Below are positions 891 to 20,668 of a DNA stretch of 27,886 nt, in pieces. This DNA is from a virus (taxonomy: Duplodnaviria > Caudoviricetes), in the IMG/VR virus record IMGVR_UViG_3300047272_000419, positions 1 through 27,886 of that record. One strand, given 5' to 3'. How positions within the stretch are numbered: position 1 is the stretch's first letter; every line of letters begins with the position of its first letter. A model generated the notes under the pieces. That model saw nothing but the letters and a program-made list of their open reading frames with translations. It made no database searches and was not told the DNA's origin. The position numbers were made by a program, and so were the translations under genes.

Positions 891-3800
891 ATGGCCGACA
901 AAGAGCTTCCCGACATCATCCCTCTCGGTACCGCGAGCCCGGTAGCAGACGAGTTTGAGACCATCTTCGACAACGACTCCGGCGCAACGGTCACCCGTCG
1001 CCGAGCTTCCCGATCTGGTGGCGCCGCCGAGAACACGACTCAGATCGTCGGCAAGCTTGACGCCATCGGACAGGGCGTAGCGCGCGATTGGTACGGCGAG
1101 ACTAAGGCAGACCTGGCCGGCGAGTTCGCCAAGACCTTCTTTACGAAGCAGGAGTTCGACAAGCTCGCACCGCTTTCCGCCGAAGAAGAGTTCGAGCTGG
1201 CCTCGCTTAAGAAGACTCCTCAGCGGGTCTCTTATCCGTCCGGGCCGTACATGCCGCCGCACACCCAGTCGACGCTATCCTTCCAGCGCCAGGTCGAGCT
1301 CGAGCGACGAAAGAACGCTCCCGCCTTTTCTGCACAGATGCAGAAGGAATTGCTCCGCATTGCTTCCGAGCTGAAGCTCGTCAACGAGGCCCTTGCAAGA
1401 AACCAGGGCGTGACCGAAGGTGCGGCCCAGTTCAATAACGCCAAAGACTGGTGGGAGAAAACGAAGATTGCTCTCTCCAACCCTCTTGACGTTGCCGCGA
1501 CCAAGGGATCCGAAAGCGCTTACACTGGCGCAAAGATTTCCGGCGCCGCCGCTGGCACCGCACTGGCCGCCGGCCTGAGCGGTGGTGGCACTCTTGCCGC
1601 TCAAGCCGCCGCCCTGGCTACCGCTGGTGCCATGACCGCGAACGAAGGTTACGATCAGACCCTTCTCGAGGAACTGGTCAAGATGGACCCTCTTATCGCA
1701 GACGACCCAGAAGGCTTTCTGGCGGCGTACAAGGCGAACCCGAAGGACTATCGCAAGGCGTACGAAGACGCCAGGACCAAGGCCGCGATCAGCGGTGTCG
1801 CTGAAGGTGGAGCAGAAGCCCTGACTGCTGGTTTGTTCAAGTTTGTTCCGGGAGGAAAAACCCTGATTGGCAAGGCCGCAAACGAGCTCGGAGGAGAGCT
1901 GACCGAAGAGTTTTCATCCCTTCTTGCCGGCAAGGCGGCTCGCGGAGAAGGACTGCCTACCGCCGCCGAAGTCGTCGATACCTTTGTCAGCACGGCCGCA
2001 GGCACCGGAATGCAGACCGCCGTGACCTCAGCCGGCGGCAAGATCGCCGACAAGACCGGACTTTCTCAGGCCGCGAGTAACACGTTGACCAGGGTTGGTA
2101 GCGCCATCGAAAGGGCAATGATGCCCCAGATGAACGTCGACCAGGGCACGCTCACGCCCATGGCCCCGCGTCCGTTCAGCCTGATGCCTCAGGCCGGAGC
2201 TCCCCAGATGGCGGTGGATCTCAACACGCTGACCCCGATCGGAGCCCCGGCCCAACAGGCGCAAGATCAGGCGCCCGTAACGCCCCAGCTACGCGTCAAC
2301 ACCAGCTCTCTTACGCCGGTAGGCCAGGCCAGTCAGGCCGGATCCTTGCCGGATGTCATCCCCCTTTCCGGCCCCACCCAACAGCCGGCCCAGCCGGCGG
2401 CTCAGGCCGCGACCCAGGCGAGCACACTCCCTGACGTCATCCCTCTCCCCGGGCCCACGGCTCAGACCGCCCAGGCCCCGGCCCCCCAGACCGCCCAGGC
2501 GCCCGCCCAGACTGCGCAACAGCCGGCCCAGGGGCCGAGCTCCCTCTTTACTCCTCCGGCGCCCCAGGCTACGCAGGCCCAGGCCGGCACGAACCCGGCC
2601 GTCCAGCAGAGCCCCAACGCGGCGCCATCCGTTCAGCAGACCCAGACCACCCAGCCCCAGGTGACTCAAGGGCAACAGCAGGCCAGGACCAATCCCCTCG
2701 CGCCCGTCCAGACCCAGACCCAGCAGGCCGGCCAAACTCAACAGCAAGGCACCAACGTCCTTCCTTCCCCTGGCGGAGGCGATGGGCAGGGATTGCAGAC
2801 CCAGGGCGTACAGACCCAGGGCTCTCAGATCCCGTTCACACAGCAGGGTCAGCAGGCCGGTCGGACCCAACCCCAACAGGCCGGTGGCGTGGCTTCAGCG
2901 TTTAATCCACAGGGACAGCAGACCCAGGGACAGCAGACCCAGGGACGTCGCCAGATCCCTTTCGCCCCGGTCCGAGGCGTTACCCCTCTCAACGAGAACG
3001 AGCGCACGCAGGTCGCGGACATGAAGTTTGCCGGCGAGCAGATGCTCCGCGACTCCGATGCGATCAGCTTCCCGGACGCCGAGACCGAAGGTGTCGCCGC
3101 ATCCAAGCGAGACAAGAAAGGCGACAAGCCGGCCAAGGAAAGACTCGCCGGCGGCTTCGAGTCTGGCGCCGCGCTTTACATTACCGCACGACAGTTCGAG
3201 GGTGCCACGCGCGAGCAGGCCTGGAATGAGGTGCTCGAAAAGTTCAAGGACAACAAGACAGTCCTTAACCAGGCCATCAAGACCAAGGACGCGATCTTCA
3301 GGACGGCCGACTCTCTTGACGGGCTCCCGGTGTCGAAGGCCTTCGAGAAGGGATCCAAGCTGGCCAGCACCCGGTTCCCCACAGCGGTATCCGCGACGGA
3401 AGACGCTGGCGCTTACAACCTTCAATCTGACATCGCGACAGTCTACTCTAACCCGACCAAGATGCGCGACTTCGCCGCATCATTGAAGAAGATCGCCGGC
3501 TTCAAGTTTGATCCGTCCATGGACGATCGACAGATCATCGACGCGTTCATGAAGCACGTCGAAGGTAACCTGTTGCACATGTTCGACAGCGTCCCTCCGG
3601 AGATCCGCGGCAGGAGCAAGCTCTGGTATGTTGGCGCAAACCTTATCGCGAAACGCCTTTCCGAAGAACACGACATCTCTCACGAAGCCGCGGCCGGCGT
3701 TCTCGCCGTTCTTTCCCCTCAGATGGACTGGTACAAGAATGTCTCCCTGGCCGAGCGCGCCTTGGACATCATTCTCAACAAGTCCGGCCACGCCGTTGAC

Positions 3801-6800
3801 CAGAAGATGGTCGACGTTATGAAGAACCGCGAGGCGATCGCCAAGATCGCCCTCAAGTTCATCGAGACGTCCAGGGGTGTGAAGAAGGATGACCTTACCA
3901 AGTACCCGGAAGACGACGACAAGAGCCGCAAAGCTAACATCATCAGAAAGAAGGCGCGCGACGCCGTCGACGAGCTCGGTCTCGCCGGCCAGAAGATCGG
4001 CGACATCAAGGACAAGCGGCTCCAGGCTATCGCACTGCGTGCCTACGATGAAGCCTACAACGGACGTTCGTACGACGTCATCACCCCAGAAGGTGGAAAG
4101 GACGGCCCCTTCACCAGCCTTGACGGCGAAGACTCGGAAGTCGGCTGGGGTAGCTTCGGCACCATTGAAAAGTGCTTCGCGATCGTCGCCGACCAGAGCA
4201 TGGAGAACATCAGCCTCCAGCTGGGCGAAGAACACAAGGTCCGCAACTTCTACAATAACATCATCGATCCGGACGCCATGGACGGCCAGGTCACGATCGA
4301 CACCCATGCCGTCGCCGCGGCCCTTGTCGAGCCCCTGTCCGGAGAAGACCCAGAAGTGAAGGCAAACCTGGGCGGCGGCGGTGGCACGGCCATGACCGGA
4401 CTTTCCGGACTTTACCCGATCTACGCGCACGCCTATGGCCAAGCGGCCAAGGCTCGCGGCGTCCTGCCGCGCGAGATGCAGTCCATCACCTGGGAGGCAG
4501 TCCGAGGTCTCTTTACCGCAAAATACAAAAATGAAAAATCAAACATCGCCGCTATCAAGTCTATTTGGAGCTCCTACAAGAGCGGACAAATCGACCTTGC
4601 CGAGGCCCGATCCCGCATCGAGTCAACCGTCGTCGAGCACCGCGTCAACGCAATCGAGGGACTCGTCAAATCGAGAGAGATCGACCGAGCCGAAGCCGAT
4701 CGCCGGATCGCGCTTGTCCGCGAACATGGAGCGTACGGACGCCCGACCTGGCATCGATCCGACGGACAGGGCGCTAAAGGATCTCGGGCTGGAACGGACC
4801 AGGGAAAACTGGATCGAGCTCAACTGGGGGGAACTGGAACGCAATCTGACCAAGGAACAACTGGCCGAGGTTCCCAGGGATCTAACCCCAGGTCCGAACG
4901 CGACGACGCCAGCTGGAGCGAGCTCGAGCGCAAGGCCGCTGAGCTAGACCGCCGGCGCGCCGCGCGCGCCCAGGCGCAGGCTAGTAACACCGACCCGGCC
5001 ACGCGCCGGCGCGGCAACGAGCAGATCGTCCAGAAGATGGTCAACGAGCTCCGTAGGGGCGGAAGACTTTCCTTTGAGGAAGTGACAGCCGCCCTGCGGA
5101 TCATCGAGAACCTGATGGAGAAGGGATACCTCGACAACCTGTCAGTCTCGGTAAGCGACGCGAACAAGGGCGGACCGGCCCGAGGTGAATACGAACAGGC
5201 GACCGAGCTTGTTCGCTTGTTCGTCCGTAACACCAACCGCCCCGGCGTCCTGAGGTATACGTTCGCCCACGAGGTAGCGCACCACCTTGAGCGCATGATC
5301 CCGGCTAAGGATCTCGAGGCCGCGCGCCAGCAGTTCCTGCGCGATCGTGCCAAGTGGCTCAAGGACAAGGAAGGCCTCCGGGCTCTCCTTGGCGATGGCA
5401 ACTGGCTGGACAAGAAATACAGCGAGGCCGAGATCAAGCGCTTCCTGGCCAGCAACAATCTAAACCCCGCCCTCCTCAACAAGTACTTCATCCGCGACAC
5501 CAGCGATCCGAAGCGAATTATCTGGCGCATCAAGAACACCGACGAGACTTACCGGCTTACTAACTTCTCCGAGTACTTCGCCGACAAGGTCGCCGACATC
5601 GCGACCGCCCGGGACGACGCTCGCGTCAACAGCCAGAACCTACTGCCCGTCTTCGCCAAGCTCAAGGAGCTCCTGGCGCAGATCAAGAAGTCCCTCATGG
5701 ACATCTTCGGAAAGGACAAGGTCGAAGCTATCTGGGATAAGTTCCAGGAAGGTACCTACACCTCAGACTTCAAGCGCGAGAAGCTTGTTGGCTACGAGAA
5801 GACCGGAAACCAGAACCCGGTCATGGATGACCCTAGGACCGCCGATTACAAGAAGCCGCGCTTCGGACCGGCCGACGCTGATCGCCAGACCCGCGTCGAC
5901 AACATCGACAAGCTTGAGCCTAACAAGCCGATCCCGCGAACGCGATCCGCGCGCGACGACGGCGAGAACACCCCGATCCCAGGCGGCTACCGCGAAGCAT
6001 TCTTCAAGGCGAAGCAGGGCGCCGGCGCTCCTGAGCCTAAACAGATCAAGTGGTGGACCGACGTCGGTCATGACGTAGAGGCCGACAAGTCGAAGCAATT
6101 CCTGTGGGCTGTCGACCGTCAGGGTCAGCTACAGGTAACCTCCGTCCAGGAGCTCGAGGACAAGGGGATCGGAGTCAGCCAGTTCGAGGCAGACGACATG
6201 GATCTGTCTGGATACGAACGCATGCCTACCCACCTCGACTGGGAAGAGCAGGGTGGCCTGTCTGGCCTGCTGAGCGGTCCGGCACACGGACGTATCGACG
6301 CGACCGGTGACGTCGTAAGGATCTCCCTGCTCCAGAAAAACCAGTCTTCGCCGGCGATCAAGGCCGAGACCCGCGAGTACCTGAAGGGCAAGCTCGCCGA
6401 GTACATGGGCGAGTCCCAGGATGACATGGCCGGCTACGACTTCACCGACGCCGGCCCGTTCACCGGCCCGGAGGTCTTCAGTGCTCGAGACGAGGAAGGC
6501 GCCGATGTTCCTAAGCCATCCCGCCCTGGATCCTACAGGGCGTTCGACGAGATGGTCACCAGCCGCGAGATCGCGAAGCCGGAAGGCATGCCTTATCCGT
6601 ACCACCTGAAACGCTTCACGGTCCTCTCTCCTACCAGCAAGACCGCACGCGCGAACCTGGAAGGTTACCACCTTGTCCAGCAGGGTAGCGATCTTGGCCC
6701 CCCTGGCCGAGATGACCGCCGGGAGTTCCGGGCAGTCTCCAAGGATGTAGACCCGGTCAGCGGAAAGCCTACCACCTACCGGATCTTGTTCCAGTACGCT

Positions 6801-9800
6801 CAGAGCGGAAGCCGTGGATCGAAGGGTAGTGTCTTTGTCACAATTACAGACGACGTCTTCGACAACGTCCCTGACTCGGTCAAGATCGGCCTGATCTCAG
6901 AGCTCTTCGAGCGCACTCGTCAGGCCGGGCTCAAGGACATCACGATCGACAAGAAGTATGCCGGCGAAATGTCTCCGGAAGACGTCGGCCTGTGGGGCCA
7001 CGTCGCCAAGAACGAGCCTGAGATCAGCTTCCAGGGCGACCTTAACACCTACGACATCGACAAGAACACCGCCTACAGCGCCCGCGACGAGGAGCCGGCC
7101 CAGGCCCCCATGTCCGTTGAACAGCGCAAGGCCAGGATCGAAGAGATCAAGCGACAGATCATGCCGCTTGCCCAGAAGGGGGCTCTCAGCCGAGAAGATG
7201 GAGCTCTTTATTCCAAGCTTGGAATGGAGCTTGAGACTCACCGCTTCGAGATGCGTGCCGGCCGAGGCCTGAAGCTGGAGCTGGTCAAGCCTATGCAGGA
7301 ACGCGGAAGCGCCATCCCTTCCGAGATCGTGAAGATCGCATCCGACGAGCTCGCCTCGAACCGTGCGGCCTTTGAAGCCCTTACCGAGGCGTCTCTTGGT
7401 GTTGGCATGAACAAAGACACCGCGGTTGACGTGATCATGAACGGGAAGAACCCTGACGTATCTCCGGCTGACCTTTACTCTGCGTTTGACCGAACCCGCG
7501 AAGCTCTGCGCAAACAGTTCGGTGACACGATCGTGCTTTACCGAGCACACGGCAAGCAGAAGCAGAAGGCCACGCAGAACTGGCACTCTACCGAGGCCGG
7601 CGCCAGGGAGTATGGTAACGACATCGAGCGTCGCGTAGTCGCAGTTGATGACATCGTAGCCGTGAACGTCGGACTGAGGGGAGCTTACGAAGAGTTTGTC
7701 GTAGGAAAGAACCCCGCGTCCGCAGACATCACTGATGGCGCCGAGTTCACCACTCCGGGCGGCGAACTGACGAACCACGGAGACAAGGATCTGGCAAATG
7801 GTGGTTTCCTTACTAAGCAGGCCATGCGTATCCCGAAGGGCGAGCGATCCAGGTACAGCTTTGCTTTCGAGCAGGATAGCCGTAGTGGCGGTCATGTGGC
7901 TCAGATCAAGTACGACGGCAATGTTGTCGCCGAACTTGACATGAGCTCTGAGGTTTATGAAGAAGGCAAGGGCCTGATCAAACTGGACATGGTGGACGTG
8001 ACCCCCTCCTTCCAGGGTCGAGGTCTTTCGACAATCATGCAGGCCGAGGTGGCAGAGCTAGGAAAGCGCGCCGACACACCTGTCGACACGCTTGTGGCCA
8101 CCGTGCTTGACCCGAAAGTACGTCCCCTGAAAAGCATGCAAAGGATCCTTGGTAAGGACAACGTCGAGATCCTTGAGTCCACCACCGAAACAACGGACGA
8201 GACCGATCAGTTTGGATACGAAGGAAACGAAGACGACATCTCAGACATGTCTCTCGATCCTGACTTCTTTAAGGACGGAAATAGGCTCCGTAATCGAGTC
8301 GAGGTCCAGGGTAACGTACCGCAATACACCCCTGAACAGCGCCAGATGATCAAGGACATCAATGCCGCGAAAGCTTCAGGAGACATGGCAAAGGTGAAGA
8401 AGCTGAAGGCTCAGTTCGATAAAAGCGTTAAGGATAACGACACTCAGATCCTGAGTGCCCGAGACGAGGACGGCGACTACCGCGGATCCCACCGAGCCCC
8501 CGACGGTGCCAACGGCGAAGGATCCATGGACGCCATGGATCGCACCTACCCGGAGGACATTTACGGACCGAAGGGCGCTCAGTACTACGGCGCACGCCGT
8601 CCCGACGACGTCAAGATCCACAAGCTGATCCAGTCTGTCCGAGGAAATCCGGACGCCAAGGTCACCGTCTACCGCGCCGTCCCCAAGGGGGTCGGAGCCG
8701 AGATCACCCCAGGCAACTGGGTCACCCCTTCGCGCGAGTACGCCGCCGAACACGGCGAGCGCTTCGCGAACGGGTACGAAATCCTCGAGCGCCAGGTCCG
8801 AGCCGGCGATCTGTTCACCGAAGGCAACAGCCTCCAGGAGTTTGGCTGGAACCCGACCGGTGAGCCGATCCAGTCAGCACGCGACGAGGACGGCGAGAAC
8901 ACCGTCATCCCTGGTGGCAAGCGCGAGCAGTTCCTGAAGAAGAAGCCGGCCTACAAGCCGCCTTACTACACCGAGATCGGCCACGACCCTGCAAACGCTG
9001 AGAACAGCTACCTGTTCATGGTCGACGCCGATGGCGTCATGTACGTCAAGCGAGTATCTGATCTAAGAAAGCAGGTCGAGGACAACTTCCCGCTCGGCGA
9101 CCGTGGTGTTCACGAGGTTCCAGGCAAGACGTACGGCATGGACATCAACTTCTTGACCCACAATGACTGGGAGGATGTAGACGACCAGCTTGAGTATGGC
9201 ACCATCAGGCAGGGCACTCGTGACGCAATCGCCTTTGGCCGCATTGAGGTCAAGGACGGCAAGCCGTACATCGCTGTCGGTGGGCAGGGTGATAACGGTT
9301 CAGAAATTGCAATGAATGAGGGACGAAAGGAGTTTCGCGCCATCATCAAGGATGCGGCAAAAGCTGTCATCGACGCCGGTGAAATCACCGGTGTCACACA
9401 GAAGTCCACCGGCCTGGACTACTCCTTCGTCGACGGCGGTGACAACGGAGCACCCGCCGTATTCAGCGCCCGCGACGAAGACACCACGGACATCCCGTCC
9501 ACCGGGTCCGGCCGTAAGGCCGGCCTGGCCGCAGGTGCCCTTGCCCTGGCACCTACCACCCTGGAGGCCGCGACCGGTGCCGCTAAGACCGGCGCAATGA
9601 TCGCCGGCGTCGCCGCTGGTGATCTGATCGCGGTCGCCACCGGCATCGCCTTCACCTCGTCGGATCGTCTGCTCAAGGGGCTCAATCCGATCGCCGCCAA
9701 CATGCACCTCCTGGCCAACGACACTAAGTCGCCGACCATGAAGCGCATCGCGGAGATGTTCAACCGCCTCGGCGGCAATACGTCTGCCGGCGCCCAGGAA

Positions 9801-12146
9801 ACCTACCACGACGAACGCGACGCCAACCGTCGCATCTATCGCAACAAGCTCGCCGCGGCCTTCGAGCCCCTGGCTAAGCTCAGCCAGGCCCAGATCCGTG
9901 CGCTCGACATCACGATCGCGCGTGCGCTTGCCGGCGAGATCCCGATGCCGACCGGCCCTGTCGGCGAAGTGGTGCGAAACCTCCAGGATCTTTCCGACGA
10001 GCTGTACCGCTACCTCCGCGAAGCCGGCGTCGAAGTCAACTACGCCAAGGACTACGCTATCCCCCACTCCTTCAACGCGGAACTGATCGCCAAGGACGAG
10101 CAGGCATTCATCGACGCGGCCGAGCAGGCCTACATCGACAACAACCCCAAGCGCATCCAGCGACTTCAGGCATACATCCAGCAGATCGACCGGGAGGCCG
10201 CGCAGAATGGCGGCTTCACCCAGGACATGACTGACCGCAAGAACGCGCTCAACGAGGAGATCAACAAGCTCCAGGTCGCCAACCCACGCCAGCAGGCGGA
10301 GGACCTTGCGGCCGCGATCATGGCCGGCGAAGAGGGAGGCGACCAGAGCCAAGGCCTGATCCTGGCATCCAATCCGAGCAACCAGAACCGGGCAGACTTC
10401 CTGAAGGACCGAGTCTTTGAGCAGTCCGCTCGAGCCATGCTACGCGAATACTTCCAGAACGACCCGCGCCACGCATGGAACAATTACATCGCACGAGCCA
10501 CCACGCTGGCCGAGTTTGCCCGACGCTTCGGTAGCAAGGGTGAGACCTGGATGAAACTTGTCGAACAGATGCGAAAGGAGGGCGTCAAAGAAAAAGACAT
10601 CACCCAGATCAAGGAGCACGTGCTCGACGCCATGGGTGCGCTCACCCCTGCGGCCCAAGGTTCGCACGCATTGGCCAACGCCCTTGTCGGACTCAGCAAC
10701 ATGTCCAAGCTCAAGAGCACGTTCCTCACGAACTTCCTCGAAGCCCAAGCCCAGGCCGTCCCAGGAGATCTCCTGGACGCCGCGTTCGCGCCGGTCGTCA
10801 TGCTCAAGGAGTTTGCCGCCGTTCTAGCCGAACTTACGCCCCGCCAGCGAGCGCTCCTTAAGCAGTATCTCCGCGTGGACATCAACACGCAGACCGGCAA
10901 CATGGAGCTCGCCCGCATCGTGGGCCTCATGGACGCGGCCGGCGTTCACAACATCATGGAAAACAGTGCGTTCGCATTGGAGAACAAGGCTGACTTCCGC
11001 GAGGACAGTAAGACCGACCGGGCCGCACGCGCTGTCTCCACTGCGACCAGCGCCATGGCCCAGGCCTACGGCATCGAAGCCTCTGAAAACGCCAAGCGAG
11101 CCATGGGAGCGCGTTACGCCGCAGGCCGTCTTGACCAGCACGTATCGGAGTTCCTCCGGGACAACATCCTGGCGCGAGCGCTCAAGAAGGTCGGGTATAC
11201 CGGGGACGCCATGACGACCCGGAATGAAGCCATCATGCGCCTTCGCCGTGCCGGCATCAATGACTCCAACATGTCCGCGTTCTCGACCTGGTGGGAGGCC
11301 GCTCGCAACAGCAATAACTTCAACGAGCGCCTGGCCGATACCACTGACCCTATGGCCGCGATCGCCCGCAAGGCTATCCGCATGGAGTCTGCCCGTGCCA
11401 TGGTTAATTCCAACCGTGCCATGAAGCCGGGCGGCGTGCGCAACAAGGCGATCTCCCAGGACAACTTCTTCGGCAAGATCGTCATGAGCTTCCTTAACTA
11501 CCCGGCCGCGTTCCGAGAGCAGGTAGGAAAGCCGATGGCGCGAGACATCGCGACCGGCGTTCGCGGGTACGAGTCTGAAGGTGGCCAGTCCACTTTCTTC
11601 AGCCCGGCCGAGCGAGCCCGCATGGTTGCACGTGTCGCCGCGATCCCGGCCATGGCCGTCTCCGCCGCAGTGTTCCTAGCCCTTCGCGTGCTCGCCCTCG
11701 GCGACGACGAAGACAAGGAAGAGCTCGCCGAGAAGACGATGCTCAGCCACATGATTGACGGCGTAAGCTACACCGGCTTTACCGGCGGCAAGACCGAAGC
11801 CGTCCAGCGTTTCCGACGTGGCCAGCTACCTCCGATCATCGACGAAGGTACGCGCCTCGCGAAGAACCTGGACCGCGAGTCCACCAACTCAAACGGTAAG
11901 GAGCGCGCGGTCACCAAGAGCTTGACGCGCTCGGTCGGCGTGCCGGCCACCCAGGCGGTCGTCAGTACCTACGCACCCGTGCCAATCGCCGCGGCGGTGA
12001 ACCAGGCCCTGGCTTCCAAGACGTTTAATGAGACGGTCGTAAACGTCGTCGCCGGGCCCGAGCAGAAGAAGGGCACCGGTAGCGGATCCACCCGAAGCTC
12101 AGGACGCGAAAGCAACCGGAGCGGAGGACGGTCCGACGGGCGCTGA
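891..12146 (+). CDS. Giant (3751 aa) multidomain polyvalent/internal virion protein
   Basis: Uninterrupted 11.3-kb ORF with phage-typical codon usage. Ala/Gly-rich N-terminus, Q/P/A linker, central enzymatic modules separated by S[AE]RD[DE], ~890-aa helical C-terminal region. Confidence 0.9.
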   Translation: MADKELPDIIPLGTASPVADEFETIFDNDSGATVTRRRASRSGGAAENTTQIVGKLDAIGQGVARDWYGETKADLAGEFAKTFFTKQEFDKLAPLSAEEEFELASLKKTPQRVSYPSGPYMPPHTQSTLSFQRQVELERRKNAPAFSAQMQKELLRIASELKLVNEALARNQGVTEGAAQFNNAKDWWEKTKIALSNPLDVAATKGSESAYTGAKISGAAAGTALAAGLSGGGTLAAQAAALATAGAMTANEGYDQTLLEELVKMDPLIADDPEGFLAAYKANPKDYRKAYEDARTKAAISGVAEGGAEALTAGLFKFVPGGKTLIGKAANELGGELTEEFSSLLAGKAARGEGLPTAAEVVDTFVSTAAGTGMQTAVTSAGGKIADKTGLSQAASNTLTRVGSAIERAMMPQMNVDQGTLTPMAPRPFSLMPQAGAPQMAVDLNTLTPIGAPAQQAQDQAPVTPQLRVNTSSLTPVGQASQAGSLPDVIPLSGPTQQPAQPAAQAATQASTLPDVIPLPGPTAQTAQAPAPQTAQAPAQTAQQPAQGPSSLFTPPAPQATQAQAGTNPAVQQSPNAAPSVQQTQTTQPQVTQGQQQARTNPLAPVQTQTQQAGQTQQQGTNVLPSPGGGDGQGLQTQGVQTQGSQIPFTQQGQQAGRTQPQQAGGVASAFNPQGQQTQGQQTQGRRQIPFAPVRGVTPLNENERTQVADMKFAGEQMLRDSDAISFPDAETEGVAASKRDKKGDKPAKERLAGGFESGAALYITARQFEGATREQAWNEVLEKFKDNKTVLNQAIKTKDAIFRTADSLDGLPVSKAFEKGSKLASTRFPTAVSATEDAGAYNLQSDIATVYSNPTKMRDFAASLKKIAGFKFDPSMDDRQIIDAFMKHVEGNLLHMFDSVPPEIRGRSKLWYVGANLIAKRLSEEHDISHEAAAGVLAVLSPQMDWYKNVSLAERALDIILNKSGHAVDQKMVDVMKNREAIAKIALKFIETSRGVKKDDLTKYPEDDDKSRKANIIRKKARDAVDELGLAGQKIGDIKDKRLQAIALRAYDEAYNGRSYDVITPEGGKDGPFTSLDGEDSEVGWGSFGTIEKCFAIVADQSMENISLQLGEEHKVRNFYNNIIDPDAMDGQVTIDTHAVAAALVEPLSGEDPEVKANLGGGGGTAMTGLSGLYPIYAHAYGQAAKARGVLPREMQSITWEAVRGLFTAKYKNEKSNIAAIKSIWSSYKSGQIDLAEARSRIESTVVEHRVNAIEGLVKSREIDRAEADRRIALVREHGAYGRPTWHRSDGQGAKGSRAGTDQGKLDRAQLGGTGTQSDQGTTGRGSQGSNPRSERDDASWSELERKAAELDRRRAARAQAQASNTDPATRRRGNEQIVQKMVNELRRGGRLSFEEVTAALRIIENLMEKGYLDNLSVSVSDANKGGPARGEYEQATELVRLFVRNTNRPGVLRYTFAHEVAHHLERMIPAKDLEAARQQFLRDRAKWLKDKEGLRALLGDGNWLDKKYSEAEIKRFLASNNLNPALLNKYFIRDTSDPKRIIWRIKNTDETYRLTNFSEYFADKVADIATARDDARVNSQNLLPVFAKLKELLAQIKKSLMDIFGKDKVEAIWDKFQEGTYTSDFKREKLVGYEKTGNQNPVMDDPRTADYKKPRFGPADADRQTRVDNIDKLEPNKPIPRTRSARDDGENTPIPGGYREAFFKAKQGAGAPEPKQIKWWTDVGHDVEADKSKQFLWAVDRQGQLQVTSVQELEDKGIGVSQFEADDMDLSGYERMPTHLDWEEQGGLSGLLSGPAHGRIDATGDVVRISLLQKNQSSPAIKAETREYLKGKLAEYMGESQDDMAGYDFTDAGPFTGPEVFSARDEEGADVPKPSRPGSYRAFDEMVTSREIAKPEGMPYPYHLKRFTVLSPTSKTARANLEGYHLVQQGSDLGPPGRDDRREFRAVSKDVDPVSGKPTTYRILFQYAQSGSRGSKGSVFVTITDDVFDNVPDSVKIGLISELFERTRQAGLKDITIDKKYAGEMSPEDVGLWGHVAKNEPEISFQGDLNTYDIDKNTAYSARDEEPAQAPMSVEQRKARIEEIKRQIMPLAQKGALSREDGALYSKLGMELETHRFEMRAGRGLKLELVKPMQERGSAIPSEIVKIASDELASNRAAFEALTEASLGVGMNKDTAVDVIMNGKNPDVSPADLYSAFDRTREALRKQFGDTIVLYRAHGKQKQKATQNWHSTEAGAREYGNDIERRVVAVDDIVAVNVGLRGAYEEFVVGKNPASADITDGAEFTTPGGELTNHGDKDLANGGFLTKQAMRIPKGERSRYSFAFEQDSRSGGHVAQIKYDGNVVAELDMSSEVYEEGKGLIKLDMVDVTPSFQGRGLSTIMQAEVAELGKRADTPVDTLVATVLDPKVRPLKSMQRILGKDNVEILESTTETTDETDQFGYEGNEDDISDMSLDPDFFKDGNRLRNRVEVQGNVPQYTPEQRQMIKDINAAKASGDMAKVKKLKAQFDKSVKDNDTQILSARDEDGDYRGSHRAPDGANGEGSMDAMDRTYPEDIYGPKGAQYYGARRPDDVKIHKLIQSVRGNPDAKVTVYRAVPKGVGAEITPGNWVTPSREYAAEHGERFANGYEILERQVRAGDLFTEGNSLQEFGWNPTGEPIQSARDEDGENTVIPGGKREQFLKKKPAYKPPYYTEIGHDPANAENSYLFMVDADGVMYVKRVSDLRKQVEDNFPLGDRGVHEVPGKTYGMDINFLTHNDWEDVDDQLEYGTIRQGTRDAIAFGRIEVKDGKPYIAVGGQGDNGSEIAMNEGRKEFRAIIKDAAKAVIDAGEITGVTQKSTGLDYSFVDGGDNGAPAVFSARDEDTTDIPSTGSGRKAGLAAGALALAPTTLEAATGAAKTGAMIAGVAAGDLIAVATGIAFTSSDRLLKGLNPIAANMHLLANDTKSPTMKRIAEMFNRLGGNTSAGAQETYHDERDANRRIYRNKLAAAFEPLAKLSQAQIRALDITIARALAGEIPMPTGPVGEVVRNLQDLSDELYRYLREAGVEVNYAKDYAIPHSFNAELIAKDEQAFIDAAEQAYIDNNPKRIQRLQAYIQQIDREAAQNGGFTQDMTDRKNALNEEINKLQVANPRQQAEDLAAAIMAGEEGGDQSQGLILASNPSNQNRADFLKDRVFEQSARAMLREYFQNDPRHAWNNYIARATTLAEFARRFGSKGETWMKLVEQMRKEGVKEKDITQIKEHVLDAMGALTPAAQGSHALANALVGLSNMSKLKSTFLTNFLEAQAQAVPGDLLDAAFAPVVMLKEFAAVLAELTPRQRALLKQYLRVDINTQTGNMELARIVGLMDAAGVHNIMENSAFALENKADFREDSKTDRAARAVSTATSAMAQAYGIEASENAKRAMGARYAAGRLDQHVSEFLRDNILARALKKVGYTGDAMTTRNEAIMRLRRAGINDSNMSAFSTWWEAARNSNNFNERLADTTDPMAAIARKAIRMESARAMVNSNRAMKPGGVRNKAISQDNFFGKIVMSFLNYPAAFREQVGKPMARDIATGVRGYESEGGQSTFFSPAERARMVARVAAIPAMAVSAAVFLALRVLALGDDEDKEELAEKTMLSHMIDGVSYTGFTGGKTEAVQRFRRGQLPPIIDEGTRLAKNLDRESTNSNGKERAVTKSLTRSVGVPATQAVVSTYAPVPIAAAVNQALASKTFNETVVNVVAGPEQKKGTGSGSTRSSGRESNRSGGRSDGR
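2121..2970 (+). repeat. Low-complexity Q/P/A/T/G linker with short peptide repeats in the giant protein
   Basis: LPDVIPLxGPT twice (2346, 2427), echoing N-terminal LPDIIPL (906). MNVDQGTLTPM / MAVDLNTLTPI / LRVNTSSLTPV. QTQG four times, QIPF twice. Confidence 0.85.
3590..4560 (+). other. HhH-GPD/Ogg-like DNA glycosylase-type domain within the giant protein
   Basis: WY (3624)...AAGVLAVLSPQMDW...HKVRNFYNN (Lys codon 4236)...VTIDTHA (Asp codon 4299)...YGQAAKARGVLPREMQSITW. Follows the K-xxx-F-xx-N...IDxH...W pattern of Ogg-type glycosylases. Confidence 0.55.
5010..5770 (+). other. Zincin-like metallopeptidase domain (MPTase-like) within the giant protein
   Basis: RGEY...VRLF...TFAHEVAHHL (HExxH at 5268-5282) and downstream SEYFAD (Glu at 5571) as putative third metal ligand. 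Confidence 0.75.
7500..7720 (+). other. ADP-ribosyltransferase-like domain 1 within the giant protein
   Basis: IVLYRA (Arg at 7542), NWHSTEAGAREY, YEEFVV (7686-7703): R-S-E class ART pattern. Confidence 0.6.
7840..8330 (+). other. GNAT acetyltransferase-like domain within the giant protein
   Basis: IKLDMVDVTPSFQGRGLSTIM contains the acetyl-CoA-binding motif A (QGRGL at 8013-8027) after a beta strand. Confidence 0.7.
8469..8870 (+). other. ADP-ribosyltransferase-like domain 2 within the giant protein
   Basis: VTVYRAVP (Arg at 8673), GNWVTPSREYA (8712-8744), NSLQEFGW (Glu at 8838). Exactly fills the interval between SARD motifs 5 and 6. Confidence 0.6.
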
Positions 12147-12599: not shown

Positions 12600-12902
12600 G
12601 TGCTCCTGGCTCTCGCCCGTCAACGGGCGAAGAAGTCGGGCATCCCTTTCGCGATCACAGAAAAGGACATCGTGATCGGCACCAAGTGTCCGGTCATGAA
12701 CGTGCCATACGAGACCGGCAAGGACCACGTCCCGCACCCGCACGCCCCGAGCCTGGACAGGATTGATCCGCGCCTGGGCTACGTGCCCGGGAACGTCGTC
12801 GTGATCAGCCGTATGGCCAACACCATCAAGCACGACGCGAGCGTCGAGCAGATCGGCAAGGTCTACAGATGGCTGAAACGTTTGACCCGCGGGCGCCGGT
12901 GA
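12600..12902 (+). CDS. HNH-type endonuclease-like protein (start uncertain)
   Basis: ARQRAKKSGIPFAIT...CPV...PSLDRIDPRLGYVPGNVVVISRMANTIK. Coding-like sequence extends in frame upstream to 12528. Confidence 0.75.
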   Translation: MLLALARQRAKKSGIPFAITEKDIVIGTKCPVMNVPYETGKDHVPHPHAPSLDRIDPRLGYVPGNVVVISRMANTIKHDASVEQIGKVYRWLKRLTRGRR

Positions 12903-13046: not shown

Positions 13047-13795
13047 GGCTCCTGGCGGTAACTCTCCTCGCCCTGGCCGGATGCTCATCCGCGCCGGACG
13101 ATAAGCCGTTGCCGCCGGCCCCTGCTCCAGCTATCCAGCAGACTACCCTGCTCGGGGTATGGGAGAAGGAGGTCGCCGAGGATCTGGCGATCTTCAAGGC
13201 GATCCGCCCATCCATCACCGGGCCGGCTCCTGCCCTGAACCTTTACGACTCCGCGACGCAAGGCCTGGCATCACTGTCCGGGGAGCCGACCGCCAAGGCG
13301 ATCGACCGGTTCCGCGGCTACGTCGAAAACCCAGACCAGGCAAAGCTCGACGCCCTCCGCGCGGAAAAGGTAGCTCTCGACAAGAAGACGGCAGAGCTCG
13401 AGCGCAAGGTGTCCGAGGAGCGCGACGCCAGGCTACTGGCCGAGGCCCAGGCTACCCAGGCGCGTAAGGACAAGGCCGAGGCTGATCGCCTGGCCAGCCT
13501 GGCCGCGTCGGCCGCACGTCTCACCGAGTACGGATCCTACGCCATCGCGGCCGGCATCCTGGCCCTGCTGTTCGGCCAATGGCTGGGGATCCAGAAGTGG
13601 GTCGCCGGCCTGACGATCGGAGCCGGGGTCCTGGTCGCCGCGACTGCCCGACCCCTGATTGACTTCTTCGGCGGGGACAAATCCGAGTATGTCCTGATCG
13701 GCACGCTCGGCTTCCTCGCCCTCAACCTATCCATCGTCGTCGGGGTCAAGACCTGGCGCTTTATCCGCCGTGAGAAAGAAACGCCCACTGCCTAA
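13043..13795 (+). CDS. Lipoprotein with coiled coil and C-terminal TM helices; candidate spanin
   Basis: MRLLAVTLLALAG-C lipobox, Pro-rich linker, heptad-like helix, three hydrophobic segments at the C-terminus; near the holin. Confidence 0.7.
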   Translation: MRLLAVTLLALAGCSSAPDDKPLPPAPAPAIQQTTLLGVWEKEVAEDLAIFKAIRPSITGPAPALNLYDSATQGLASLSGEPTAKAIDRFRGYVENPDQAKLDALRAEKVALDKKTAELERKVSEERDARLLAEAQATQARKDKAEADRLASLAASAARLTEYGSYAIAAGILALLFGQWLGIQKWVAGLTIGAGVLVAATARPLIDFFGGDKSEYVLIGTLGFLALNLSIVVGVKTWRFIRREKETPTA

Positions 13796-14015
13796 GGTGA
13801 TCGTGCATCCCCTTCCGGGGGACGTCGCAGGCCTGGCATGCAAGGCCGACAACACGATTGAAATTGATCCAAACCTGTCTCCGAGCAAGGCCTTGGAGGT
13901 GGCCGTTCACGAGGCTCTCCATCTGGCGGATTGGGGGCTCAGCGAACGCAAGGTGAAGTATCGCGCCAAGTACATCGCCGAGGTCCTGTGGGCTCAAGGC
14001 TACCGCAAGAAGTAA
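13770..14015 (+). CDS. Small zincin-like (HExxH) protein
   Basis: GLA...TIEID...LEVAVHEALH...SE pattern of minimal metallopeptidases. Confidence 0.65.
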   Translation: MRKKRPLPKVIVHPLPGDVAGLACKADNTIEIDPNLSPSKALEVAVHEALHLADWGLSERKVKYRAKYIAEVLWAQGYRKK

Positions 14016-14016
14016 C

Positions 14017-14316
14017 ATGGAGCCCCCGACCAACAACCCGCTTCACGAGGCCATCGTCTCCTTCGGCCTGGGTCTCGCCGCCTACTTCGCAAGGCACGCC
14101 ATGTCCAAGGATCGTTACCCATGGGTGGTCCTGCTAGGTCGCTTCTTCGCGGCCGGCATCACCGCCGTCTTCGCCGGCTGGGCTGTCGAAGGCCTGGGCG
14201 TAGAGAAGCAGAACCTCCGGTACGCGATCGTCGGATGCTTGTCCTACGCGTCACCGGAGGTCCTCTTCTACGTGCTCGCCACCGTCCGCAAGAAGGGCGA
14301 CGCGATCATCAAGTAG
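14017..14316 (+). CDS. Putative holin
   Basis: 99 aa, about three TM segments, basic C-terminus (RKKGDAIIK). Confidence 0.7.
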   Translation: MEPPTNNPLHEAIVSFGLGLAAYFARHAMSKDRYPWVVLLGRFFAAGITAVFAGWAVEGLGVEKQNLRYAIVGCLSYASPEVLFYVLATVRKKGDAIIK

Positions 14317-15331: not shown

Positions 15332-15439
15332 GTTGGGGCAGTAACAACACCGACAAAATGTAGGAATGTCAATACTGAGATTTTTTCCCATTGACCGGAG
15401 AGGATCGCCAGGCAGAGTGATCACATCGGACCCAACGCC
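15332..15439. promoter_or_regulatory. Divergent promoter/switch region
   Basis: AT-rich gap. Minus-strand TTGACA (15372-15367) points to int; plus-strand TTGACC-N16-CAGAGT (15391-15418) points to the HTH gene. Palindrome GTGATCAC at 15417-15424. Confidence 0.6.
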
Positions 15440-16141: not shown

Positions 16142-16993
16142 ATGCTCCGCATCATCAAGGCCGACGAGCGCCTCAAGCTCGCCCCCAAGGTCAACATCGC
16201 TCTCTTCGGTCCGTCCGGAGTGGGCAAGACCACCCTCGCCCGCACGCTCGACCCCGAGTCCACGCTCTTCGTGGACCTCGAGGCCGGCACGCTGGCCATC
16301 CAGGACTGGCCCGGCGACGTGCTCGACGTCCGCGCCGCGGCCCAGGCCTTCGGCAAACAGCCGTGGGAGATCGCCCGCGCCCTGGCCCTGTACATCGGTG
16401 GCCACGACCCGTCCGATCTGAACGGCGCCTACAGCAAGCCGGTCTACGACGCCGTCTGCGAGGCCTTCAAGGAGATCCCTCTCGCCAAGTACAAGACCGT
16501 CTTCGTCGACTCGATCACCGTCGCCTCGCGCGACTGTCTCAAGTGGGCTGAGAAACAGCCGGAAGCCATGAACAAGGACGGCAAGCCCGACACCCGCGGA
16601 GCCTACGGCCTGCTCGGTCGCGAGATGATGCGCTGGCTGACCCATCTCCAGCACAGCAACAAGTCGATCGTCGTCGTCGGCATCCTGAACCGCGAAGAGG
16701 ACGACCTCAAGCGCGTGTCCTGGGTGCCTCAGATCGAAGGCGCCAAGACCGCCCGCGAACTGCCTGGTATCTTCGACCAGGTGATCACCCTCCAGAACTT
16801 CAAGGCCGAAGACGGATCCCTCTACCGCGGCCTGTGCTGTCAGCAACAAAACCCCTGGGGCTATCCCGCGAAGGATCGCTCCGGTCGTCTCGAGCTCCTC
16901 GAGGCCCCGCACCTGGGCGAGCTGATGGTCAAGATCCGCGAGGGCAAGCGCCTCGACACGACGCTGATCACCACCATGCCGGCCAAGGCCTGA
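16142..16993 (+). CDS. AAA_24 / Sak4-like ATPase (recombinase)
   Basis: Walker A GPSGVGKT, LFVDLEAG, VFVDSIT, AKDRSG; followed by an SSB-like gene. Confidence 0.85.
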   Translation: MLRIIKADERLKLAPKVNIALFGPSGVGKTTLARTLDPESTLFVDLEAGTLAIQDWPGDVLDVRAAAQAFGKQPWEIARALALYIGGHDPSDLNGAYSKPVYDAVCEAFKEIPLAKYKTVFVDSITVASRDCLKWAEKQPEAMNKDGKPDTRGAYGLLGREMMRWLTHLQHSNKSIVVVGILNREEDDLKRVSWVPQIEGAKTARELPGIFDQVITLQNFKAEDGSLYRGLCCQQQNPWGYPAKDRSGRLELLEAPHLGELMVKIREGKRLDTTLITTMPAKA

Positions 16994-18212: not shown

Positions 18213-19874
18213 ATGAAACTTCGACCCCGCCAGGCGGACTTCGTGTCCCGCGTACTGACCGCGCTCGCCGACAAGGGTAACACCCTCGGCGTGGCGCCGA
18301 CAGGCGCAGGCAAGACGGTCATGCTCAGCTCGGCGATCGCCCAGTCGCGCAAGAAGGACAAGCCCTTCCGCGCGCTCGTGATCCAGCACCGGGAAGAGCT
18401 CGTCAACCAGAACCGGGCCACGCTCAGACGCGTCGACCCGGACCTGGCATCTGACATCTACGCCGCCGACCGCAAGAAGTGGTCGGACGGTGTCACCTAC
18501 GCCATGGTCCAGACCCTCAGCCGGCCGGACAACCTGGACACCATGCCGGCCATGGACCTGGTCGTGATCGACGAGGCGCACCACGTCGCCGCGTCCAGCT
18601 ACAAGAAGATCCTCGAGCGCGCGCGCTCCCTTAACAAGGACGTCCGGATCCTGGGCGTCACGGCCACACCCGAGCGAGGTGACAAAGCCGCCCTGAAGGA
18701 CGCCTTTTGTAACGTGGCCGACGTGATCTCGATCCGCGAGCTGATCGAGGCAGGCCACCTGGTAAGGCCTCGCACCTACGTCATCGACTGCGGACTGCGC
18801 GAAGAGCTCGCCGGCGTGAAGCGCACGATCTCCGAGTTCGACATGGCCGAGGTCGAGGCGATCATGGACAAGAGCGCGGTCACCGAGAAGGTGATCGAGG
18901 AGTGGCGCCGGCTTGCCGGCGACCGTAAGACCATCGTCTTCTGCTCGACGATCGAGCACGCCAGGCACATCACCCAGGCCTTCGCCGACGCCGGCATCAA
19001 GGCCACCGAGATCCACGGCGAGATGACCGACACCGAACGTCGTCGCGCCCTGATTGACTTCGAGAAGGACAAGTACCAGGTCCTGGTCAACGTCGCGATC
19101 GCGACCGAAGGGTACGACTGCCAGACGATCGCGTGCGTCGTACTGCTCCGGCCGTGCTCCTACAAATCCACCATGATCCAGATGGTCGGCCGGGGCCTGC
19201 GCAAGGTCGACCCGGAGAAGCACCCCGGCGTGATCAAGACGGACTGCGTCGTCCTGGACTTCGGTTATTCACTGCTTACTCACGGAGGCCTCGAGACCGA
19301 CACGGTCCTCGAGCCGGTCAAGGGCAAGGGCATGACCAAGGACTGCCCGTCCTGCGAGATGGAGATCCCCGCCGGCTGTGGCACCTGCCCCTCCTGCGGC
19401 CACATCTTTGACGCGGTCGAGCGCCGTGCCCAGGAAGTGAAGGAGCGCCAGGCCCTGGCCGACTTCGTCATGACCGAGGTCGAGATCATGAAGCTCAGCC
19501 CCTTCCAGTGGGAAACCTTCTGGGGCGTCGTCACCATGGCGAACGCCATGTCTGCCTGGGCCGCGATCATCAAGCACGCCGGCGTCTACCAGGTGATCTG
19601 CGGGAAGGACGCCGATCGCGTCGTTCACCTGGTCGCCAAGACCACCGACCGGCTCCAGGCCCTGGCCTCCGCGGACGACTACCTCCGGGAGCACGGCGAC
19701 AAGGACGCCGCCCGGAAGACCAAGCGCTGGATCAACGAGCCGGCCAGCGACGACCAGCTCCGCTACCTCTCATCCCAGGCCAATGATTTTTCCATGACCA
19801 AGTACCGCGCGTCGTGCCTTTTGACGTGGACTTTCAAGGAGAAGCTCATCAGAGCTAAGGTTCTTTCCGTATGA
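18213..19874 (+). CDS. Superfamily 2 DEAH helicase (RadD/YejH-like) with zinc ribbon
   Basis: APTGAGKT, DEAHH, GVTATP, TEGYD, QMVGRGLR, CPSC...CPSC. Start MKLRPRQ at 18213. Confidence 0.92.
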   Translation: MKLRPRQADFVSRVLTALADKGNTLGVAPTGAGKTVMLSSAIAQSRKKDKPFRALVIQHREELVNQNRATLRRVDPDLASDIYAADRKKWSDGVTYAMVQTLSRPDNLDTMPAMDLVVIDEAHHVAASSYKKILERARSLNKDVRILGVTATPERGDKAALKDAFCNVADVISIRELIEAGHLVRPRTYVIDCGLREELAGVKRTISEFDMAEVEAIMDKSAVTEKVIEEWRRLAGDRKTIVFCSTIEHARHITQAFADAGIKATEIHGEMTDTERRRALIDFEKDKYQVLVNVAIATEGYDCQTIACVVLLRPCSYKSTMIQMVGRGLRKVDPEKHPGVIKTDCVVLDFGYSLLTHGGLETDTVLEPVKGKGMTKDCPSCEMEIPAGCGTCPSCGHIFDAVERRAQEVKERQALADFVMTEVEIMKLSPFQWETFWGVVTMANAMSAWAAIIKHAGVYQVICGKDADRVVHLVAKTTDRLQALASADDYLREHGDKDAARKTKRWINEPASDDQLRYLSSQANDFSMTKYRASCLLTWTFKEKLIRAKVLSV

Positions 19875-20668
19875 TCTTCTCACCCAACGAAGGCCGCGAG
19901 GCCACGACAACGGAGCAAGCTATCATCGCGTCCATCGACGCGGCGATGCTGTCCAAGAACAAGGAGCAGGCCAGGCGCCAGTACCTCGGCGCGTCCCGGA
20001 TCGGGCACCACTGCGAGCGCGCCCTGGGCTACGAGTACCACATGGCCGAGAAGGACGAGGGCGCCGACTTCAAAGGCAAGACCCTCCGGATCTTCGACAT
20101 GGGCCACGACGGCGAAGAGCGCATGGCCAGGTACCTACAGCTCGCCGGCTTCGAGCTCCAGACCCACGCGCCCGACGGCAAGCAGATCGGAATGTCAGAC
20201 GCCGGCGGAAAGTTCAAGGGACACCTCGACGGAGTGATCCACTCCGGCCCGGTCGCGGATCTCAAGTACCCCATGCTGTGGGAGAACAAGGCCCTCGGCG
20301 ACAAGAGCTGGAGCGACGCCGTGAAGAAAGGCATCAAGCTCAGCAAGCCGGTGTACTACGCCCAGGTCCAGATCTACATGGCGTACCACGAGCTCGAGTC
20401 GTGCATGTTCACCTGCCTCAACCGCGACACCGGCGAGATCCACGTCGAGCTGATCCCCCTCGTCACGCGCGACGCCCAGGACTACATTGACCGCGCCGTC
20501 CGCATCGTCAGCTCCAACGCCCCGGAGGAGCTCGGCAAGGCCGGGCGCTCTGCCGACGACTTCAACTGCAAGTTCTGCGACTACAAGGCGCGATGCTGGC
20601 AGAAGACCACTTCCCAACCCAACACCAACCACCAAACCATCAACCCCTCATGGCTAAGAAAAGAGTAA
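19871..20668 (+). CDS. Cas4-like PD-(D/E)xK exonuclease
   Basis: GASRIGHHC, GHLDG, WENK, YYAQVQIYM, CKFCDYKARC (four-Cys Fe-S pattern). Confidence 0.85.
   Translation: MIFSPNEGREATTTEQAIIASIDAAMLSKNKEQARRQYLGASRIGHHCERALGYEYHMAEKDEGADFKGKTLRIFDMGHDGEERMARYLQLAGFELQTHAPDGKQIGMSDAGGKFKGHLDGVIHSGPVADLKYPMLWENKALGDKSWSDAVKKGIKLSKPVYYAQVQIYMAYHELESCMFTCLNRDTGEIHVELIPLVTRDAQDYIDRAVRIVSSNAPEELGKAGRSADDFNCKFCDYKARCWQKTTSQPNTNHQTINPSWLRKE

Follow-up and report, generated by a model that had tools for sequence, protein, structure and literature searches.

Short sequence motifs mark the cuts in phage head proteins of the T4/SPN3US type. The phage-type polyvalent proteins with a zincin-like MPTase, as presented in passages of Iyer et al. 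2017 (PMC5512222), are giant virion-module proteins that join an HExxH domain and its downstream Glu to ART-like and GNAT-like modules. Autoprocessing by this zincin domain, releasing separate units, was proposed in those passages in 2017, which counts for self-cutting, and the literature searched yielded no cut site; the same passages list N4 vRNAP, ArdC and TraC1 as delivered full length, which counts against it. The polymorphic toxins that they also describe resemble the locus presented here in varying by recombination of cassettes into a main locus. The N4 virion RNA polymerase gp50, likewise very large (~3,500 aa), is ejected and includes an HExxH domain among its several domains, but it carries an RNA polymerase and, according to passages of PMC13434306 that mention no junction tag, the recombinant protein including this domain shows 'no evidence of degradation', which also counts against self-cutting. 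Another comparable protein is phi24B gp47 (2811 aa), a polyvalent protein with a metallopeptidase domain that is present in podovirus virions and proposed to be ejected; unlike the present protein, it carries LPD1/5/38 domains, and the passages concerned (bioRxiv 10.64898/2026.04.10.717836) propose peptidoglycan degradation for its peptidase and mention no junction motif. Finally, ejected head proteins of SPN3US undergo proteolytic maturation by a prohead protease (passages of PMC5694885 and PMC10052503).

The window, i.e. the whole stretch of 27,886 nt from an uncultured phage of the Caudoviricetes that was analysed here, encodes a giant protein whose gene is divided as follows:

891..12146, plus strand: giant polyvalent protein gene (3751 aa), final slot of a podovirus-type virion module
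891..3101, plus strand: N-terminal region with a Gln/Pro/Ala-rich stretch
3102..4892, plus strand: cassette C14, DUF7178 (Pfam PF23802, E 9e-30)
4893..5945, plus strand: cassette C4, predicted zincin metallopeptidase (MPTase-type)
5946..6479, plus strand: cassette C1, copy a, alpha/beta domain with conserved GH, H-x-D-W and GRI
6480..7076, plus strand: cassette C5 (199 aa), GNAT-like by eye only, no significant library match
7077..7730, plus strand: cassette C8, ART-like by an R-S-E pattern seen by eye (YRA, WHST, YEEF), no library match
7731..8453, plus strand: cassette C9, probable GNAT acetyltransferase (PF00583, E 0.016, sub-cutoff; E 0.0015 in P0009)
8454..8873, plus strand: cassette C3 (140 aa), probable ART-fold domain (phrog_2579, E 7e-35)
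8874..9464, plus strand: cassette C1, copy b (28% identity with copy a)
9465..12146, plus strand: constant C-terminal chassis (882-900 aa in 15/15)

The close homologues (15 proteins of 3087-3908 aa) contain 8-11 profile-defined modules each, in differing orders, and thereby show the combination of several unrelated domains in one large polypeptide that characterizes polyvalent proteins. Location among phage virion genes, another such feature, is found in the complete relative G001, where terminase, portal, major head protein, SU10-type adaptor, internal virion protein and three small ORFs precede the giant gene; the gene order of the cultured phage OP028995 matches that of G001. Judging from this order, the gene occupies a podovirus-type ejection slot and its product is likely an ejection protein, likely packed into the particle and injected. 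No relative was found in GTDB genomes, no cultured phage was found to carry the constant chassis, and no RNA holder is listed. In relatives, a cassette that looks ParB-like by eye (C13) may occupy the N-terminal region.

Sixteen cassette families, most of them without library match, are delimited by a junction tag (see below) and are candidates for enzymes of host takeover or anti-defence. Each of the 15 proteins carries a single member of the set C12, C14 and C15, and C1 occurs in 26 copies across them. In BFVD, C1 matches other uncultured-phage proteins (43-49% identity), one of which is named large polyvalent protein associated domain-containing protein; in the Atlas it matches unnamed clusters and one DUF8093 cluster, all below 0.9. 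Foldseek found no match of C1 in the PDB at E<=0.001, and a search at 92-336 aa found no stand-alone homologue, which is a weak negative. The domain names proposed by the sequence-only reading are less secure than its motif positions: GNAT for C9 has a sub-cutoff match, ART for C3 has a lead from its nearest named Atlas clusters, mostly ART families but all below 0.8, the 199-aa 'GNAT-like' segment has no significant library match, and the first ART, C8, is named from its R-S-E pattern seen by eye. Since profile comparison gave no link among C12/C14/C15, among the GNAT-like C5/C7/C9/C17 or among the ART-like C3/C8/C11, these groupings stay by-eye ones.

The giant ORF (891-12146) carries seven S-[AE]-R-D-[DE] motifs, against 0.025 expected from composition, at the positions given by the sequence-only reading. 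They enclose segments of 351, 178, 199, 459, 140 and 197 aa, as that reading had it, and their Ser codons are indeed TCC, TCC, AGT, AGC, AGT, TCA and AGC. The 459-aa segment consists of two cassettes, C8 and C9, that are SARD-separated in relatives. The sites are:

3102..3116, plus strand: eroded eighth site SKRDK, aa 738 (the same junction is SGRDE in P0002 and SARDD in P0004)
4893..4907, plus strand: SERDD, aa 1335
5946..5960, plus strand: SARDD, aa 1686; DNA joints end here
6480..6494, plus strand: SARDE, aa 1864; DNA joint at 6493
7077..7091, plus strand: SARDE, aa 2063; DNA joints at 7076 and 7093
7707..7766, plus strand: C8/C9 junction without motif, near aa 2273-2292 (motif lost also in P0008)
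8454..8468, plus strand: SARDE, aa 2522; DNA joint at 8454
8874..8888, plus strand: SARDE, aa 2662; DNA joints at 8890/8891
9465..9479, plus strand: SARDE, aa 2859; DNA joint at 9470

All 15 close homologues possess the motif, in 6-12 copies per protein, with a wider consensus [VAI]-x-S-A-R-D-[ED]-[EDGA] (133 sites). The proposed location at domain boundaries holds: S-x-R-D is found at 119 of the 123 profile-defined module junctions and only once in 29,861 core residues, and, when the motif is masked, 118 of the 144 breakpoints in homology fall no more than 20 aa from it (against a null mean of 20.6 and a maximum of 42 over 2000 draws). Some joints can do without the tag, since four of the 123 junctions, including C8/C9 of the window's protein, have no S-x-R-D. 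The TARDD at aa 1572 is not counted as a junction: it directly follows the helix bearing the peptidase Glu and is replaced by GDRDD, GERDD or GEEDA in relatives. P0016-P0018, which share the chassis (~50% identity) and in which the HExxH domain is different or absent, lack the motif (3/3). No junction motif of polyvalent proteins was found in the literature searched (subscription journals and the PMC5512222 supplement lay outside it), and the passages of PMC5512222 name no recurring junction peptide, whereas here a rigid tag is the crossover point. The SARD-jointed protein belongs with the phage polyvalent proteins, as a variant with a rigid junction tag in which crossovers fall.

As expected by the sequence-only reading, cargo varies among the homologues while the junction motif persists: 110 single-motif junctions display 55 different cassette pairings. 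The N-terminus and the C-terminus stay constant, and permutation affects as many as eight internal slots between them, unlike in polymorphic toxins, where, in the passages of PMC5512222, it is mostly the C-terminal toxin that varies. Inside the motif, ancestry changes from one cassette to its neighbour, residues at -1 and before tracking the upstream cassette and those at +6 and after the downstream one. In public metagenome contigs, nine of ten cassette-changing DNA joints end within 11 nt of a motif. Junction pairs are identical, in register, over stretches that reach 15-19 nt. Two genes of the window could act in these exchanges:

16142..16993, plus strand: Sak4-like single-strand annealing protein (phrog_124, E 1e-41), candidate agent of cassette swaps
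19871..20668, plus strand: Cas4/RecE-like exonuclease (phrog_1990, E 8e-75), candidate Sak4 partner

The crossovers located in the motif, the shared runs and the Sak4-like protein could all be explained if the motif were only a DNA recombination hinge, kept uniform through frequent crossover, with the peptide as a by-product. However, synonymous divergence affects 10 of 29 codons at motifs and 35 of 106 in the peptidase core, so that selection acts on the peptide: third codon positions are as free to vary as in this core, whereas S, R and D are unchanged. Furthermore, Ser is split between TCN (11 times) and AGY (13 times), the 24 sites include 20 distinct 15-mers, and modal codons do not significantly exceed what is usual in the gene (p 0.056-0.15). 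The tag is constrained as a peptide rather than as DNA, and a hinge as sole explanation is largely refuted and highly improbable. The earlier view that conservation is at peptide level is therefore upheld as regards selection, but its exclusion of a recombination site fails: as crossovers fall inside the motif codons, peptide versus DNA was a false choice, and the motif combines a conserved peptide signal with a crossover point.

The explanation that we prefer, with the balance tipping only slightly in its favour, is that of a likely injected polyprotein in which the peptide-selected S-A-R-D-[ED] tag is the module-swap point and would likely also be cut by the zinc metallopeptidase predicted within the same protein. 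As the sequence-only reading had noticed, one segment bears the hallmarks of an HExxH peptidase:

5268..5282, plus strand: HEVAH, predicted zinc-binding/catalytic motif, aa 1460-1464 (HExxH in 15/15)
5571..5573, plus strand: downstream Glu in N-F-S-E-Y, predicted third zinc ligand, aa 1561 (kept in 15/15)

An HExxH with downstream Glu is the pattern described for MPTase in passages of PMC5512222. A profile of 46 HExxH regions from other giant phage proteins matches the domain in 15/15 (E 4e-10 to 3e-6 in the 15-sequence set; hhalign probability 96%), and a profile of the peptidase retrieves 1402 proteins of a representative library at E<=0.001. By these profile matches, the embedded domain is homologous to the HExxH domains of other giant phage proteins. 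It would be an active protease. A zincin fold should show a three-stranded sheet plus helices; the domain's model, based on an alignment of 10 sequences, lacks these strands, its pLDDT being <50 where they are expected. Foldseek and VIA fold searches, like a sequence search of solved structures, gave nothing significant and were uninformative rather than negative. No LPD or MPTase Pfam family matches the giant protein at cutoff, and a word-limited search at 446-2000 aa retrieved no peptidase relatives (a weak negative).

Self-cutting at the tag is further weakened by 144 other proteins from the peptidase profile search, none of which has SxRD[DE] two or more times and most of which lack any repeated motif exceeding the shuffled background. 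A peptidase tree of 48 rows, from which 11 of the 15 family members and the HEGRH/HEHGH rows were left out, groups the SARD clade as one branch and is unable to show co-evolution; a single clade and a single sister comparison underlie the association of motif and peptidase. For another peptidase clade, a putative motif class L[NFY]Q failed the significance test. One SARDE of P0009 lies inside the peptidase domain, which counts against a cut site.

The tag might instead be a binding or threading signal that is never cut, docking each module on a partner, be it the chassis, a protein of the ejection channel or the HExxH domain in a peptide-binding capacity, so that the chain travels intact as beads on a string. 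N4 gp50, a beads-on-a-string protein not degraded in vitro (passages of PMC13434306), offers a precedent, and loss of the tag at C8/C9 is tolerated. However, a mere docking role fits poorly with the retention of the predicted catalytic Glu and zinc ligands in 15/15, and the strict S, R and D, the tolerant second position and the small hydrophobic residue at -2 would resemble protease subsite specificity; an uncut tag is considered unlikely.

Cleavage might also be due to another protease, either of the host or the following one, the embedded domain then acting on host proteins:

13770..14015, plus strand: stand-alone HExxH protein (81 aa), candidate rival cutter, conserved in the window, L001 and L008

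This conservation, the lack of the motif in most relatives of the embedded peptidase and the cutting of head cargo by a separate protease in other phages such as SPN3US (passages of PMC5694885 and PMC10052503) would fit such a scheme. However, the gene adjoins putative lysis genes, away from head genes, its protease matches are weak (phrog_87 metallo-protease, E 0.078; DUF6782, E 0.02), and sister proteins devoid of this embedded peptidase are also devoid of the tag. The separate prohead protease of the SPN3US/T4 type acts on many head proteins, whereas here the tag is confined to the giant protein: in G001, S-x-R-D-[DE] is absent from the other virion-module proteins, including scaffold, capsid (which has SERDV) and portal. 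No prohead protease was recognised between its portal and capsid genes, nor any protease family match in its head module; a weak phrog_530 match (E 0.04) concerns a coiled-coil-like ORF outside this module. Cutting by another protease is judged quite improbable.

Taken together, self-cutting would proceed as follows. The giant protein would be packed in the head, then ejected. Either in the head or after entry, the embedded HExxH domain would cut at or beside the tag and so release the modules of ART-like, GNAT-like and DUF7178 type, whose targets would lie in the host. The 15-19 nt encoding the tag may serve as microhomology for the phage's Sak4/exonuclease pair, in which case swaps would land in frame and keep one cut site per joint. 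A more ambitious version, which we advance tentatively and with somewhat more doubt than belief, is a modular self-processing weapon chain whose code has a dual use. The same five to seven codons would specify where an embedded protease particular to the lineage cuts, and would provide the microhomology by which wild phage populations permute, add or drop effector cassettes in frame, as in an integron-like cassette array inside one protein. Protease and tag would co-evolve in each lineage (SARD here; FSPxR, S[AT]DR, SKQS and RESR in other giants).

What the SARD family contributes is a candidate site of unusual rigidity, a candidate enzyme to go with it and, in its eroded sites and motif-less sisters, controls provided by nature; together these make the autoprocessing idea testable with one expressed domain and a peptide reporter. 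Whatever the role of the peptide, the data reveal the way in which these proteins diversify, namely by exchange of whole cassettes, in living populations, at a fixed hinge of five codons.

The giant polyvalent protein encoded by the window, a single virus record of 27,886 bases, contains the motif S-[AE]-R-D-[DE] seven times (aa 1335, 1686, 1864, 2063, 2522, 2662 and 2859) for 0.025 occurrences expected, and SARD is its commonest 4-mer (6 copies versus 0.12 expected). The segment lengths and the Ser codons that the sequence-only reading had given for these motifs are both reproduced on recount. SKRDK at aa 738 is an eroded junction site, and the 459-aa segment consists of two cassettes that have lost the tag at their joint, as also seen in the homologue P0008. 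The genes concerned are the following:

891-12146 (+): giant polyvalent protein gene, 3751 aa
12159-12527: nucleotide-modification-associated domain 1 gene (PF07659), directly after the giant gene
12600-12902: endonuclease gene (phrog_3322), downstream of the giant gene, after the PF07659 gene
13770-14015: stand-alone HExxH protein, 81 aa, adjoining putative lysis genes and conserved in the relatives L001 and L008

A search with the full-length protein, in which 2005 candidates were scored, returned 57 proteins. Fifteen, including that of the window, are close homologues with 6–12 motifs each (133 in total); the wider consensus of these sites is [VAI]-x-S-A-R-D-[ED]-[EDGA], with A at position 2 in 116 of the 133. 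Once cut at the motifs and clustered, these proteins resolve into recurring cassettes, whose order differs among proteins, flanked by an N-terminus that varies and a ~890-aa chassis that stays constant. Two tests lessen the circularity of this approach. In the first, run with the motif masked, the distance to a motif is at most 20 aa for 118 of the 144 clustered BLAST breakpoints, whereas random positions that close number 20.6 on average and 42 at most over 2000 draws. In the second, junctions were delimited with profiles built on the trimmed cores of the cassettes; S-x-R-D is found in 119 of 123 (SARD in 104) and is absent in four, and inside the cores S-x-R-D-[DE] occurs once in 29,861 residues. 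As the cores were first obtained by cutting at motifs and the proteins are kin, these counts do not represent independent events. Thus, as the sequence-only reading had proposed to check, cargo varies while the motif persists at the junctions; the SARD tag is a real feature.

The crossover between cassettes lies inside the motif. Among 110 single-motif junctions, representing 55 cassette pairings, residues up to -1 follow the upstream cassette (sharing of residue -1 is 0.71 for the same upstream cassette versus 0.14 for the same downstream cassette) and those from +6 on follow the downstream cassette (0.49 versus 0.15). Eight of 17 listed public metagenome runs, compared with the region at 85% likeness, gave 22 joints (X1, from which the window itself may come, contributes two, one having a side of 29 letters; a single X10 contig contributes four; X3 and X4 belong to the same study; joints below 95% likeness may be foreign, as the joint-mapping tool warns), including 12 gaps inside one cassette and 10 cassette changes. 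Of these 10, nine stop at most 11 nt from a motif (eight of them at most 3 nt), and the tenth (5595 to 6381) has a short side of 20 letters only. The main assembly of X1 is interrupted at the aa-2063 motif (window 7052-7093), where a minority contig runs on into a different cassette; therefore, two cassette orders may coexist in this sample. Exact DNA runs common to junction pairs within a gene reach 15–19 nt (median 5–8). The window encodes an integrase, a Sak4-like annealing protein, a helicase, a Cas4-like exonuclease, a primase/helicase, a terminase small subunit and RusA. As Sak4-type single-strand annealing proteins recombine diverged DNA (PMC5499656), a microhomology-driven exchange of cassettes could plausibly be carried out by enzymes that the phage itself encodes.

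Such swaps could be taken to mean that the motif matters as DNA only, an explanation that we consider very improbable. In the three genes whose DNA was compared (those of the window, P0002 and P0013), the 24 sites comprise 20 distinct 15-mers, Ser is encoded 11 times by TCN and 13 times by AGY, and the modal codons show no significant excess over their use in the gene (p 0.056–0.15). Between the window and P0002, synonymous differences affect 10 of 29 unchanged residues at six homologous junctions and 35 of 106 in the peptidase core. Since the codons are varied and synonymous divergence at the motifs is close to that of the peptidase core, the motif is under selection as a peptide. The earlier claim of conservation at the peptide level rather than of a DNA recombination site therefore stands for the constraint, but the DNA joints make the motif a place of swaps as well.

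Exactly one of the cassettes C12, C14 and C15 is found per protein (5, 6 and 4 of the 15, respectively), which suggests one functional slot; profile comparison gave no link among the three. C14 (window 3102-4892) is DUF7178 and, by eye, all three resemble helix-hairpin-helix glycosylase-type domains. Library matches below the cutoff make C9 a probable GNAT, and C3 matches phrog_2579, its nearest named Atlas clusters being mostly ART families with scores <0.8. Judging by sequence patterns, C8 may be ART-like and C5 GNAT-like. The cassette C1 is present in every one of the 15 proteins (26 copies, up to three divergent ones per protein; window 5946-6479 and 8874-9464) and keeps the motifs GH, H-x-D-W and GRI. 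In BFVD, the C1 model matches further proteins of uncultured phages (43–49% identity), one of them annotated as a large polyvalent protein; it matches none of the solved structures. C1 also occurs in other phage giants. Among the modifying enzymes of polyvalent proteins, ARTs are the most frequent (PMC9503650).

The virion genes lie beyond the left end of the window. In G001, a complete relative of 45.7 kb, the order is terminase large subunit, portal, scaffold-like ORF, major head protein, small ORF, SU10-type adaptor, 893-aa ORF, internal virion protein, three small ORFs and giant gene. Its capsid protein shares 47% identity with that of the cultured phage Mae-Yong1326-1, whose gene order is nearly the same, plus an HNH gene, and ends with a 2441-aa protein that has two HExxH motifs and zero S-x-R-D-[DE]. 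These gene orders place the giant protein in the ejection-protein slot of short-tailed phages, and it would be packaged in the virion and injected. A comparable virion protein is described for phi24B (bioRxiv 10.64898/2026.04.10.717836). A small virion-module ORF upstream (window 10-831) has ESARDM, outside the [DE] consensus, close to its C-terminus, also in G001. A tyrosine integrase gene (14309-15400, -) lies opposite the replication module, which makes a temperate lifestyle likely. Metagenomes from freshwater and lakes contain near-identical pieces.

The candidate cutter is the HExxH domain embedded in the giant protein. Its catalytic signature, HExxH and a Glu ~100 residues downstream, is intact in all 15 family proteins and is the arrangement of the zincin-like metallopeptidase (MPTase) of polyvalent proteins (PMC5512222). 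The domain matches no named family in Pfam and PHROGs; searching with a profile built on 46 HExxH regions of the other giant proteins detects it in 15/15 (hhalign probability 96%), and a library-wide profile search with the peptidase gave 1402 proteins at E≤0.001. Its predicted structure is without the expected strands, and fold searches gave nothing informative. Three sister proteins (P0016–P0018) have the chassis in common (~50% identity), another HExxH domain or none, and zero S-x-R-D-[DE], a single comparison that links motif and peptidase; the GNAT cassette C9 of P0016 is without tag. These sisters have little cargo. TARDD is found directly after the Glu helix of the peptidase (window 5604-5618, aa 1572), its R-D-D being kept in 13 of 15 family proteins. 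In P0009 this site reads SARDE. The likeness to the tag may be coincidental or a form of mimicry built into the protein.

Self-processing at the tag, in which the embedded domain would be an active protease and its cuts would free the enzymes, is a reading that we hold with scarcely better than even confidence. The work that defines the polyvalent-protein class proposes processing by the MPTase (PMC5512222). Two observations weigh most against self-processing: N4 gp50, which has an HExxH domain, showed no degradation as a recombinant protein (PMC13434306), and several MPTase proteins are listed as delivered whole (PMC5512222). The undegraded N4 gp50 would suit a tag that stays uncut and serves in binding or threading, an explanation that we judge unlikely. 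Cutting by another protease, a candidate being the 81-aa HExxH protein, seems somewhat less likely still. The head module of G001 yielded no recognisable prohead protease, and the other virion-module proteins lack S-x-R-D-[DE]. Main-text passages of PMC5512222 name no junction peptide, whereas the tag described here is rigid; the DarA cut site is left undefined in the relevant passages of PMC9024508, and the literature searched yielded no published junction motif in such giant proteins. The particular value of the present tag thus lies in its rigidity plus the direct evidence that it is a hinge of cassette exchange.

None of 144 further peptidase-profile matches carries two S-x-R-D-[DE], and most are without a repeated motif above shuffled background. 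[FY]S[PT]xR or S[AT]DR is repeated at p<0.001 in 6 of 42 non-family proteins, a descriptive count as the patterns were chosen after viewing; P0056, one of the proteins with the nearest peptidases, has six copies of SKQS, and P0189 has six of RESR. Such peptides are compatible with, rather than proof of, lineage-specific enzyme-site pairs. Repeated peptides (FSPxR, S[AT]DR, SKQS, FSR, RESR) are seen in P0026, P0027, P0032, P0034, P0035, P0048, P0056, P0112 and P0189, and are often preceded by D-I-R or similar.
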